Assembly (NCBI GenBank): GCA_038046385.1
Contig: JBBSWH010000017.1
Location: forward strand, 1-31,586
Length of the DNA stretch: 31,586 nt
Direction of reading: 5' to 3'
Source: Nanobdellota archaeon
Lineage (GTDB): Archaea; Nanobdellota; Nanobdellia; Woesearchaeales; GW2011-AR4
Both the position numbers and the translations under genes were made by a program. The notes under the pieces are model-generated. The model saw nothing but the letters and a program-made list of their open reading frames with translations. It ran no database searches and was not told the DNA's origin. This document shows, piece after piece, positions 1 through 31,586 of the stretch. The number at the start of each line of letters is the position of its first letter. Position 1 is the first letter of the stretch.

Positions 1-2
1 TT

Positions 3-135
3 ATTGTAAATTCATGGGTTTAAAACCCCATGCTTTAGCATGAATTTACAATCCCGCAGACTTGCCTATTAATTACGAGGCACAATCAAAACCCAGACTT
101 TTAAGTCAGGGATTGTGCCGAGTGGCAAGTCTGCG
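3..135. repeat. Two adjacent nested foldback elements (IS200/IS605-end-like or MITE-like palindromes)
   Basis: ATTGTAAATTCATG (3-16) pairs with CATGAATTTACAAT (39-52), enclosing GGGTTTAAAACCC and an alternative CATGC-TTTA-GCATG hairpin. CGCAGACTTGCC (55-66) pairs with GGCAAGTCTGCG (124-135), enclosing GGCACAATC/GATTGTGCC and GACTT-TT-AAGTC. Confidence 0.8.
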
Positions 136-208
136 TTATCTTGCAGTGCTTTTCGTACATTTCTGTATTGCATACTGTGCATAGGACATTTTCCTCTGGC
201 TTGGCCAT
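101..208 (-). pseudogene. Small CPxCG-related zinc-finger protein (HVO_2523-like), apparently interrupted after KHCKI by the foldback element
   Basis: Manual translation MAKPEENVLCTVCNTEMYEKHCKI-TQTCHSAQSLT*. The first CxxC and the EMYxxHCK motif are present. The expected second CPxCG knuckle is replaced by hairpin sequence from position 135. Confidence 0.55.
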
Positions 209-257: not shown

Positions 258-420
258 TGCTCCCGCCGGGATTCGAACCCAGGTCTTCGGATGTTTTTAG
301 CGCGGGCTAAAAACCCAGTGAATCTTTGATTCACGCTGCGAAAATCCGAAATGATTGGTTATCCCCAAAGAACAACCCCATATAATGGACTTTCTTCAGA
401 CCGGACTACACTACGGGAGC
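258..420 (-). tRNA. tRNA-Glu(UUC) with two introns: 42 nt in the D-loop (359-400) and 46 nt at canonical 37/38 (293-338)
   Basis: Removing both introns gives a 75-nt cloverleaf GCTCCCGTAGTGTAGTCCGGCCAATCATTTCGGATTTTCGATCCGAAGACCTGGGTTCGAATCCCGGCGGGAGCA. The 37/38 intron has a strict BHB (TTTT/AAAA helix, bulges CG^C and AC^A). The D-loop intron has a relaxed BHB (GTCC/GGAT helix). No encoded CCA. Confidence 0.92.
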
Positions 421-19479: not shown

Positions 19480-19648
19480 AAAGTTAGCATCAATTCGCGA
19501 AGGCATTTTATTGATTTATCCAACATGACAGGGGGAAGCGAATTGAGCAAAGCTCAATTGCTCACTTGAAGCTATGCTTCAAGTTGAGTCCCTTACGGGG
19601 ATGTCATGTATTCTAAAAAGAGGGATAGCCTGAGCCGATGCTAACTTT
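19480..19648 (+). repeat. Foldback element family A, copy 2, with nested multi-hairpin insert
   Basis: AAAGTTAGCATC/GATGCTAACTTT stem and GCGAAGGC/GCCTGAGC core. Inner ACATGACA/TGTCATGT closes three hairpins: AATTGAGC-AAA-GCTCAATT, CTTGAAGC-TAT-GCTTCAAG and CCC-TTACG-GGG. Confidence 0.8.
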
Positions 19649-30671: not shown

Positions 30672-31097
30672 TTGAAAATTCCTCAACAAAATTCAAAATT
30701 AGAAAATATTTCTTATGTACCATTAGGAATATTGCGCGACCGTTCTGTTACTCCATTGGAAGCTATTGTAGTTTATTTCAAAAATTTAGGATTCTCTTTC
30801 AAGGAAATTTCTTTGATGATCAACAGGGACCCGAGAACAGTTTGGACCGTGTATCAAAGAACAACAAAGAAAAAAAAAGGAGAGTATTCTGAAAATAATT
30901 CAAAGCTTGAAAACATTTCTTATATTCCGTTACGCATATTCAAGAACCGTTCTGTTACTGCTCTCGAAGCGATTATCCTTTACCTTAAGGATTCCGGCTT
31001 TTCTTTCAAGGAGATATCTCTTTTGATTAACAGGGACCAGAGAACAGTATGGACTGTCCACCAAAGGGCAGTCAGAAAAGGGGTGCAGCATGAATAA
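30672..31097 (+). CDS. Tandem-duplicated HTH (sigma-70 region 4-like) DNA-binding protein
   Basis: Two ~70-aa repeats, each NSKLENISY.PL.I...RSVT.LEAI..Y.K..GFSFKEISL.INRD.RTVWTV.QR. Confidence 0.85.
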   Translation: MKIPQQNSKLENISYVPLGILRDRSVTPLEAIVVYFKNLGFSFKEISLMINRDPRTVWTVYQRTTKKKKGEYSENNSKLENISYIPLRIFKNRSVTALEAIILYLKDSGFSFKEISLLINRDQRTVWTVHQRAVRKGVQHE

Positions 31098-31578
31098 GCT
31101 AAACCCTGTGTTTAAGTTTGCTGCATTGTTCCTTGTTGTAATAATTGCACTTATGGGATTCCATTACATGAAGCCGCTTTTCACTGGTTTTGTTGTCAAT
31201 GAAAAAGAGAATGCTTATGTTGACAGAATAGGGCAGGAGTTCATCTCCAGTTCTGAATATGCATGGCAAAAAGAGAATAACGGAGCATTGAAGAGTTTCA
31301 AACTATCTGGAGCCATGGAGAATAACACTGCTGCAAAAATCTGGCTTGAAAGCGACGGAATAAGGTACCTTGTATTTGACACTGCAAAAACTGAAAGCAT
31401 TTCCGGAATAACCGGATTTGTTGTTGACGAGAACGGAAATGAGATAAACGCAACAGTAAACGAAACAATAGATGAAATATTAATCAATGAAACGATTGAA
31501 ATAAATGAAACAATAAACAACGAAACAATTTCAATAAATGACCTCCTCTCGCACCCTAAAGGGTGGAGTTTCCTTTAG
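31090..31578 (+). CDS. N-terminus of a membrane-anchored surface glycoprotein, apparently truncated by a hairpin element
   Basis: N-terminal TM helix, two TGFVV motifs and a run of N-x-T sequons (NAT, then NET four times). The sequence switches abruptly to hairpin-derived DLLSHPKGWSFL*. Confidence 0.7.
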   Translation: MNKLNPVFKFAALFLVVIIALMGFHYMKPLFTGFVVNEKENAYVDRIGQEFISSSEYAWQKENNGALKSFKLSGAMENNTAAKIWLESDGIRYLVFDTAKTESISGITGFVVDENGNEINATVNETIDEILINETIEINETINNETISINDLLSHPKGWSFL

Positions 31579-31586
31579 GTAAAAGC
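31541..31586. mobile_element. IS200/IS605-family end-like hairpin (no transposase in window)
   Basis: CCTCCTCTCG-CACCC-TAAA-GGGTG-GAGTTTCC resembles the subterminal hairpin pattern of IS200/IS605 ends. Confidence 0.6.

Follow-up and report, generated by a model that had tools for sequence, protein, structure and literature searches.

The tRNA-Glu(UUC) gene and its anticodon-loop intron

The window examined here is the whole of contig JBBSWH010000017.1, a stretch of 31,586 nucleotides from a Nanobdellota archaeon (GCA_038046385.1, Woesearchaeales). Close to its start lies a tRNA-Glu(UUC) gene with two introns, and the one in the anticodon loop, a 46-nt double hairpin with a predicted bulge-helix-bulge (BHB) fold, is the subject of this analysis. 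Our data suggest that this intron was gained in the recent ancestry of the species from a dispersed family of small hairpin modules. The assembly is designated G000 (1.28 Mb, 38% GC, 19 contigs, 85% complete) and the window is its contig C17; other G numbers denote genomes, L numbers denote loci of relatives, and C numbers denote contigs. The features of the gene are the following.

258..420, minus strand: tRNA-Glu(UUC) gene with two introns, from Rfam RF00005 and from ARAGORN after in-silico intron removal
293..338, minus strand: anticodon-loop intron of 46 nt at position 37/38 (between G37 and A38)
318..334, minus strand: intron hairpin 1, GTGAATC-AAA-GATTCAC, with a 7-bp stem and an AAA loop
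293..314, minus strand: intron hairpin 2, GTTTTTAGC-CCGC-GCTAAAAAC, 9 bp
359..400, minus strand: D-loop intron of about 42 nt, with boundaries uncertain by a few nucleotides

The Rfam tRNA model RF00005 matched positions 258-420 of the minus strand with 38.9 bits, compared with a gathering score of 29, and with insertions of 47 and 49 nt. ARAGORN and Rfam at gathering thresholds missed this tRNA in the window, and it was seen only with relaxed filters. In-silico excision of 338..293, together with some 40-43 nt from the D loop, led ARAGORN to call tRNA-Glu(ttc). In the 85%-complete assembly, a BLAST search with the gene returned nothing else but the CUC isoacceptor, on C14, which leaves this as the only tRNA-Glu(UUC) gene found. 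Positions 293-338 had been named as a tRNA intron in an earlier reading of this DNA from its letters alone (hereafter the sequence-only reading), and they coincide exactly with the anticodon-loop intron of tRNA-Glu; the 46 nt are also the exact surplus relative to 26 of the 29 loci that were read in relatives. The D-loop intron is kept throughout the genus, with 84-95% identity at same-genus loci.

The sequence 3' of hairpin 1, GGGTTTTTAGCCC, also folds as the 9-bp hairpin 2, and the 3' arm of hairpin 2 has alternative partners, namely TTTT of the exon and AGCG of the intron, with which it gives a BHB. In the resulting hBHBh' arrangement (outer helix, bulge, central helix, bulge, outer helix) an AGCG-CGCT helix is followed by the bulge CG/C, a TTTT-AAAA helix, the bulge AC/A and the anticodon stem TCGGA-TCCGA. 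This fold, which was drawn by hand, contains two 3-nt bulges with a 4-bp helix between them and has an energy of -15.6 kcal/mol. The double-hairpin conformer (-20.1 kcal/mol) lies about 5 kcal/mol below it, so that the sequence looks like a double hairpin first and a BHB second. The genome encodes both EndA (PF01974, 97.5 bits, C6:72431-72691) and RtcB (PF01139, 536 bits). The stretch 293-338 is a perfect predicted BHB tRNA intron, and its excision is predicted from the fold.

Logan contigs from all four public runs examined, which come from four studies, span the intron with 0 differences; the intron is not an assembly artefact. No contig that skips exactly 293-338 was seen in the public runs, whose contigs drop rare variants. 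The only joint observed (286 to 401, run X4) has 26 other letters between its two sides, and it was read as the tRNA-Glu of another organism.

Distribution of the intron among relatives

The tRNA-Glu gene was searched for in 80 relatives, and 29 loci were read for the 37/38 site. At 26 of these, GGATTTTCG is followed directly by ATCCGA and there is no 37/38 intron, while L033 (G017:C37) has a 39-nt intron at this position. In a DNA tree of RtcB (28 rows, quick IQ-TREE), G000 and G017 are sisters (SH-aLRT 98) deep inside the genus. Their clade (96) also includes G026, G007 and G028, and the respective loci L027, L023 and L022 are without the intron. Because 26 of the 29 loci are empty and G000 is nested in an intron-less clade, a lineage-specific gain in recent ancestry is the economical reading. 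This is also the answer to the comparison of orthologous tRNA-Glu introns that the sequence-only reading had proposed.

The introns of G000 and G017 at this common site were considered as homologues and rejected as such, given that their alignment score of 18 differs little from the shuffled mean of 17.3 and was reached by 868 of 2000 shuffles. T-loop introns that are unrelated in sequence and length occur in most relatives, and the G000 tRNA-Glu has none. The turnover of introns in tRNA-Glu(UUC) is very fast across the genus (L012-L040), with a third insert, in the D arm, in some loci (L024, L035). G017 has two tRNA-Glu(UUC) genes with different intron sets (L033 on G017:C37, and G017:C1:2462-2553), which could reflect a paralogue or a mixed bin.

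A dispersed hairpin family related to the intron

A BLAST search of the 80 relatives with the intron gave many short matches to its first 32 nt at places that are not tRNA genes. The 5' 32 nt match a module in G044 with 84% identity (E 7e-4), and a match to the intron start in G041 reads CAGCGAAAATCAAAGATTTTCTGGGCTTT. Seven of these BLAST matches were used to build a covariance model, R1, which matched 507 times at E<=0.01, in 60 of 81 genomes; in G000 itself it matched 26 times at E<=0.05. The layout of R1 consists of CAGCG, a first hairpin (6-7 bp, AAA loop), CTGG, and a second hairpin (8-9 bp).

Among the best R1 matches are inserts of 45-46 nt in the tRNA-Gln(UUG) genes of G027, G036 and G025, located at 38/39 to 40/41 and built from CAGCG, a hairpin, CTGG and an 8-bp hairpin. 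The tRNA-Gln of G000 itself is without this insert. The Glu intron aligns with the Gln introns over its full length, with 32 of 46 positions matching, and the global alignment scores (48, 43 and 42 for G027, G036 and G025) compare with a shuffled mean of 19 (sd 3.7), such that none of 2000 shuffles reached them. Related introns are therefore found in tRNAs of different identity, at 37/38 in Glu and at 38-41 in Gln, as with the transposed tRNA introns of Thermoproteales. The 3' arm of hairpin 2 matches each host exon, with AAAA against TTTT in Glu and AAAGG against CCTTT in Gln. R1-like segments were also found in the tRNA-Ser(CGA) intron of G000 (22.5 bits) and in a tRNA of G042 that is Ser-like by reading, and a tRNA on C5 has a related double hairpin in antisense within its T-loop insert of 82-86 nt. 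Apart from these, the tRNA-Arg(GCG) gene of G000 (C4:51013-51117) has a 31-nt intron with one hairpin between CAGCGAAAATC at its start and CGCTTGAAAAC at its end, and these ends are the same as those of the Glu intron, CAGCG...CGCT.GAAAAC.

All nine R1 copies that were examined outside tRNA genes lie in gaps between open reading frames (ORFs), their non-tRNA status being judged by ORF context, as Rfam missed the multi-intron tRNA-Gln and tRNA-Ser positive controls. Most of these nine copies stand directly upstream of the next gene, in the orientation of that gene and beside a TATA-like run. A tandem array of three units, bounded by AAACC, is present at C1:176920-177085. In terms of their ends, R1 copies such as the one at C4:6673 finish in AAACC, and the intron is preceded by TTCG and ends in AAAAC. 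Intergenic units at C1:176920-177085, C4:6640-6708, C11:42520-42588, L090 and L098 end in AAACC and are followed by the TATA-like sequence TTTAAAAA; the intergenic R1 units may carry or target promoters.

IS200-type and PATE-like elements in the window

Similar hairpins are present in the two ends of the window, which belong to repeats referred to here as family A and family B. Family A resembles the palindrome-associated transposable elements (PATEs). The features concerned, together with the corresponding motif of the intron, are the following.

1..139, minus strand: family A, a transposase-less PATE-like insertion of about 135 bp, with TTAT at 1-4 and 136-139
42..16, minus strand: motif in family A, CATGC-TAAA-GCATG-GGGTTTTAAACCC
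107..88, minus strand: motif in family A, GACTT-AA-AAGTC-T-GGGTTTT
140..208, minus strand: small four-cysteine zinc-ribbon gene interrupted by family A, 5' part of 23 codons
334..304, minus strand: motif in the intron, GTGAATC-AAA-GATTCAC-T-GGGTTTTTAGCCC
31539..31586, plus strand: family B, end of a multi-copy IS200-type element
31552..31573, plus strand: motif in family B, CACCC-TAAA-GGGTG-GAGTTTCC (hairpin 31552-31565)

The four motif strings had been quoted in the sequence-only reading as copies of a single architecture, and all of them are present exactly as written. Judged by sequence, they fall into three element families, A, B and R1, and the hairpin at 107..88 belongs to a longer stem, CCCTGACTT-AA-AAGTCTGGG. 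Because the four hairpins are not one family, a joint covariance model was replaced by model R1 and by a regular expression with shuffled controls. The expression required a perfect stem of at least 5 bp, an A-rich loop, a spacer of 0-1 nt, and then G(G/A)GTTT, and it matched 14 times in the genome compared with a mean of 0.85 (range 0-4) in 20 dinucleotide-preserving shuffles; as the motif was defined post hoc from the same cases, this comparison does not give a clean p-value. The 14 matches represent four independent things, namely family A site 1 (4), family A site 2 (2), family B (7) and the intron (1). The proposed enrichment over shuffled sequence thus holds for the expression, with a motif that is post hoc and with 13 of the 14 matches contributed by families A and B. 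The genome contains 2061 hairpins with stems of at least 6 bp, and its adjacent hairpin pairs number 172 compared with 27-45 in shuffles.

The family B sequence of 48-54 nt terminates 7 of the 38 contig ends of the assembly, which are the window end and ends of C2, C7, C12, C14, C16 and C18, and another sequence, family C, terminates five further ends (C1, C2, C3, C10 and C13). A complete compact IS200 is present in G002:C77, with tnpA (L074 1284..1799) for a 171-aa Y1 transposase on the opposite strand. Family B (window 31539-31586) is 90% identical over 40 nt to the left end of this element, and family C agrees with the right end at 26 of 32 positions. Since the two ends match B and C, these families are the two ends of a multi-copy IS200 with an interior that is unassembled in G000. 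Twelve of the 38 contig ends thus lie in IS200 with an unassembled interior, presumably tnpA, so that counts of tnpA understate the IS200 load. In the ORF at 31090-31578 (plus strand), the last 13 codons ahead of the stop lie within the IS200 end, so the insertion has probably truncated this gene.

At each end of the G002:C77 element, a 5-bp hairpin with a TAAA loop runs straight into GGG (CACCC-TAAA-GGGTG-GGGTTTCC on the left, CGCCC-TAAA-GGGCG-GGGAATTAAACCC on the right), and the two hairpins are oriented alike. Another IS200 of about 725 bp, found at 8 loci in 5 genomes with 72-91% identity, has CCAGC-TAAA-GCTGG-GGGTTTCTC at its tnpA-upstream end. The label "IS200/IS605-end-like" that had been given to the hairpin pattern is consequently apt, as real tnpA-bearing elements in the genus carry the (T)AAA hairpin, GGG and a T/A-rich run. 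The sole assembled Y1_Tnp (HUH) gene in G000 is a divergent single copy at C10:41826-42305 (53 bits). It is flanked by GC-rich hairpins that are unlike the ends of the repeat families, and it may be a domesticated copy similar to the REP transposases.

Family A was found by BLAST at 14 places in the genome, with lengths of 105-190 bp, and three contig ends, the window start among them, break within it. The copies begin with TTAT followed by TGTAAATT and finish GTCTGCG TTAT, with the end sequence ...GTCTGCGTTAT. They have near-terminal palindromes and no terminal inverted repeats, and they are too short for a transposase gene. Their nested stems are preserved by compensatory changes, while the loop tips vary in length. 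All 12 of 12 left junctions of family A carry TTAT, as do 10 of 12 right ends, and its orientation relative to the element never changes. The empty site in relatives has a single ATAA, compared with ATAA-element-ATAA in G000. Strand-specific insertion beside a constant tetranucleotide, the IS200/IS605 mode, would give this pattern, and so would a 4-bp duplication of TTAT.

Family A splits the zinc-ribbon gene, the 3' fragment of which forms the end of contig C15, while the orthologues are uninterrupted in all four relatives' loci that hold the gene (L027, L034, L036 and L014). The claim that a hairpin element disrupts a gene in the window was therefore correct in this case, and the split gene places C15 beside C17 in the genome. 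On the minus strand, family A holds two IS200-type hairpins (107..88 and 42..16), a B-like one followed by a C-like one, in the order and orientation of the G002 IS200; the second, CATGC-TAAA-GCATG-GGGTTTTAAACCC, resembles the right end of the G002 element, CGCCC-TAAA-GGGCG-GGGAATTAAACCC. By sequence comparison, family A is PATE-like and carries B-like and C-like IS200-type hairpins. No ends like those of family A were found beside tnpA at the 10 loci inspected. Two 50-nt double hairpins are nested within copies of family A, without target duplication.

Two other identities for family A were considered and rejected. For window 1-139 as a TnpB or omega-RNA element, PF01385 gave no match, PF07282 reached 19.2 bits (below the cut-off), and Rfam detected no HEARO or omega-RNA family there; for circular omega-RNAs, a published study describes no BHB. 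For family A as an mRNA BHB intron, no convincing BHB could be drawn at its ends, as judged by eye.

Relation of the R1 modules to IS200 transposition

In the sequence-only reading, the intron was built from the IS200/IS605-end-like hairpin that recurs in the window, and mobilisation by TnpA was suggested. The IS200 Y1 transposase is a candidate mobiliser because the IS200 ends and the PATE in the window share the hairpin-plus-GGGTTT architecture. Several results speak against its involvement. Around 22 tnpA loci (69 kb in all), model R1 gave one hit of 13.3 bits (E 0.16), which is no clear match. The copy number of R1 does not track tnpA, as the gene is present in 16 of 27 same-family genomes with at least 8 R1 matches and in 11 of 21 with fewer, a comparison that is weak because IS200 interiors drop out of assemblies, G000 itself having 12 IS200 contig ends without an assembled tnpA. 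The flanks of the intron (TTCG before it and AAAAC at its end) differ from the TTAT target of family A and fit no conserved target oligonucleotide.

R1 and the IS200 and PATE ends are different sequence families that have only a general architecture in common. The motif and its mobilisation by TnpA are supported for window 1-139 and 31539-31586, and they extend to the intron by analogy only. The expected resemblance of true IS200/IS605 ends to the intron was likewise found in the hairpin architecture and not in the sequence, given the result at the 22 tnpA loci. By this analogy, it is conceivable but rather doubtful that the IS200 Y1 transposase mobilises the R1 module. A more specific version would be that the R1 double hairpins are minimal, terminal-only IS200 derivatives moved by Y1 as single-stranded DNA, with a right-end linker (...AAAAC/...AAACC) that pairs with the U-rich tRNA loop and creates a BHB in one step. 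We consider this version unlikely; if true, IS200/IS605-type transposition would be a general generator of archaeal tRNA introns.

Origin of the intron

With moderate confidence, the 46 nt at 338..293 are read as a working BHB intron that derives from a mobile R1 module, whose insertion or copying into the anticodon loop took place in recent ancestors of the species. For the tRNA-Glu intron, this supports the idea put forward in the sequence-only reading that mobile hairpin elements seed tRNA introns, since the intron is a gain and its R1 family is dispersed and present in other tRNA introns. A copy of the R1 module would enter the anticodon loop of tRNA-Glu(UUC) at the DNA level, and the 3' arm of its hairpin 2 (GCTAAAAAC) would switch partners to the exon UUUU and the intron AGCG, forming the BHB. 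EndA would then cut after G37 and before A38, and RtcB would join the exons. The module copy would persist because the re-paired arm yields a BHB that EndA can cleave. The intergenic, tandem and repeat-nested copies of R1 point to a free-standing mobile module as the donor, and insertion at the DNA level is supported by the antisense copy in the C5 T loop and by the nesting in family A.

Several observations weigh against this account. The BHB conformer is not the minimum-energy fold (-15.6 compared with -21.2 kcal/mol). The score of 47.4 bits between the intron and R1 is circular because the model was built from the intron's own BLAST matches, and R1 pools several hairpin subfamilies. The species tree rests on a single gene, RtcB. 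Introns of 18 nt stand at 37/38 in L037 and L038, which belong to two other genera, and the 39-nt non-homologous intron of G017 at 37/38 means that no single clean event explains this site, where hits or rewriting have clearly occurred at least twice. Lastly, an 18-nt intron in G048 (another genus), AAGCTTTTGGCTAAAAAC, has the AGC...GCTAAAAAC frame in common with the G000 intron.

This last similarity is the starting point for an alternative in which an old mini-intron was colonised. An ancestral 37/38 intron of the form A-AGC-loop-GCT-AAAA-AC would have been lost in most lineages, and its loop would later have taken an insert of about 32 nt with the hairpin in G000; G047 likewise has an 18-nt intron at 37/38. 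However, the alignment of the G048 and G000 introns is marginal, with 87 of 2000 shuffles reaching its score, many independent losses would be required on the RtcB tree, and the common 3' end is forced by pairing with the exon TTTT. Moreover, the homology to the Gln introns spans the CAGCG start and both arms of hairpin 2 and thus extends beyond the interior, and we regard colonisation of an old intron as quite improbable. Chance or convergence, by which an ordinary BHB intron has A/T-rich hairpins that resemble IS ends and repeats through genome composition, would be in keeping with the 38% GC of the genome, the abundance of short hairpins (2061 with stems of at least 6 bp) and the post hoc definition of the motif. 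It is disfavoured and would be very surprising in view of the 14 motif matches where 0.85 were expected, the Gln-intron alignment score that 0 of 2000 shuffles reached, and the match of the 5' 32 nt at 84% identity (E 7e-4) in the G044 module.

The donor may also have been another intron. R1 would then be primarily a tRNA-intron family that spreads between tRNA genes, either by reverse splicing and reverse transcription or by recombination between BHB-forming sites, and its intergenic copies would be by-products. The homology of the Glu intron to the Gln introns over its full length agrees with this, as do the 3' arm of hairpin 2, which varies to fit the host exon (AAAA/TTTT in Glu, AAAGG/CCTTT in Gln), the tRNA-Arg(GCG) intron of G000 with the same ends (CAGCG...CGCT.GAAAAC), and the Thermoproteales precedent described in a review (Yoshihisa 2014, PMC4090602). 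Such copying accounts poorly for the abundant intergenic and tandem copies of R1, for the antisense copy in the T-loop insert of the C5 tRNA, and for the modules nested inside the DNA repeat of family A, and in our judgement it is improbable as the source of the intron.

Comparison with known systems

The gain from a mobile R1 module can be compared with several systems. In Thermoproteales, closely related BHB introns are found in different tRNAs and positions, which implies that they were recently gained as DNA (Fujishima et al. 2010, cited in Yoshihisa 2014, PMC4090602), and that review calls the mechanism of intron transposition unknown. As in that description, closely similar BHB introns are found here in different tRNA species and positions. 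In contrast to Thermoproteales, the host belongs to the DPANN archaea (Woesearchaeota), the kin introns lie in the tRNA-Gln of other species and not in the same genome, and the R1 family is also abundant outside tRNA genes, where it is intergenic, tandem and nested in a repeat.

For IS200/IS605 elements, an account of the IS608 mechanism describes strand-specific insertion beside a fixed tetranucleotide (PMC3597680). The PATEs of Haloquadratum are transposase-less IS200/IS605 derivatives, and that report also describes very short, terminal-only PATEs of 52 bp and small repeats nested in PATE palindromes (PMC3119063). Families A, B and C are similar to these elements in that they have no terminal inverted repeats, carry subterminal hairpins of the same orientation at both ends, and are flanked by a fixed tetranucleotide with one insertion orientation relative to it. 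The 50-nt modules nested in family A are likewise similar to what the Haloquadratum text describes. Unlike these features, the resemblance of the intron and R1 to IS200 and PATEs lies only in the architecture, an AAA-loop hairpin followed by GGGTTT...AAACC.

The REP/REPIN sequences and the Rickettsia palindromic elements of bacteria are high-copy, short palindromic modules that are often paired and are tolerated in RNA and protein genes, and the suspected mobiliser of REP/REPIN is a single-copy relative of the Y1 transposases. We know of no link between these elements and protein-spliced tRNA introns. G000 is similar to REP/REPIN hosts in having one divergent Y1_Tnp gene and differs from them in that REP/REPIN are bacterial.

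In Caldiarchaeum subterraneum, Sugahara et al. 2012 (PMC3293823) attribute tRNA intron gain in a short time frame to a mobile element. According to that study, the element is 1.8 kb long, encodes a recombinase and leaves a tRNA fragment, whereas the module described here is 46 nt, non-coding and itself the intron. A 2026 preprint on Asgard archaea reports repeated gains at BHB-competent sites and found no route of arrival. Literature searches, judged mostly from listings, brought up no paper that ties the gain of tRNA introns to hairpin repeats of IS200 or PATE type. The present case differs in its donor, a 46-60-nt non-coding hairpin module that is also found away from tRNA genes, in a genome whose active IS200 elements and PATEs have this architecture too.

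With the present locus, the arrival of protein-spliced introns in archaeal tRNA genes becomes directly testable. The locus unites a dated gain, an exact empty site in relatives and a donor family outside tRNA genes, and the same 31-kb contig also holds an IS200 sequence and a PATE of like hairpin architecture. The tRNA-Glu intron thus offers a concrete example of intron acquisition by archaeal tRNA genes.

Other double hairpins in the window

A different double-hairpin repeat is present at window 19541-19584. It consists of AATTGAGC-AAA-GCTCAATT, gctc and ACTTGAAGC-TAT-GCTTCAAGT, and at least 6 similar copies were found elsewhere in the genome.

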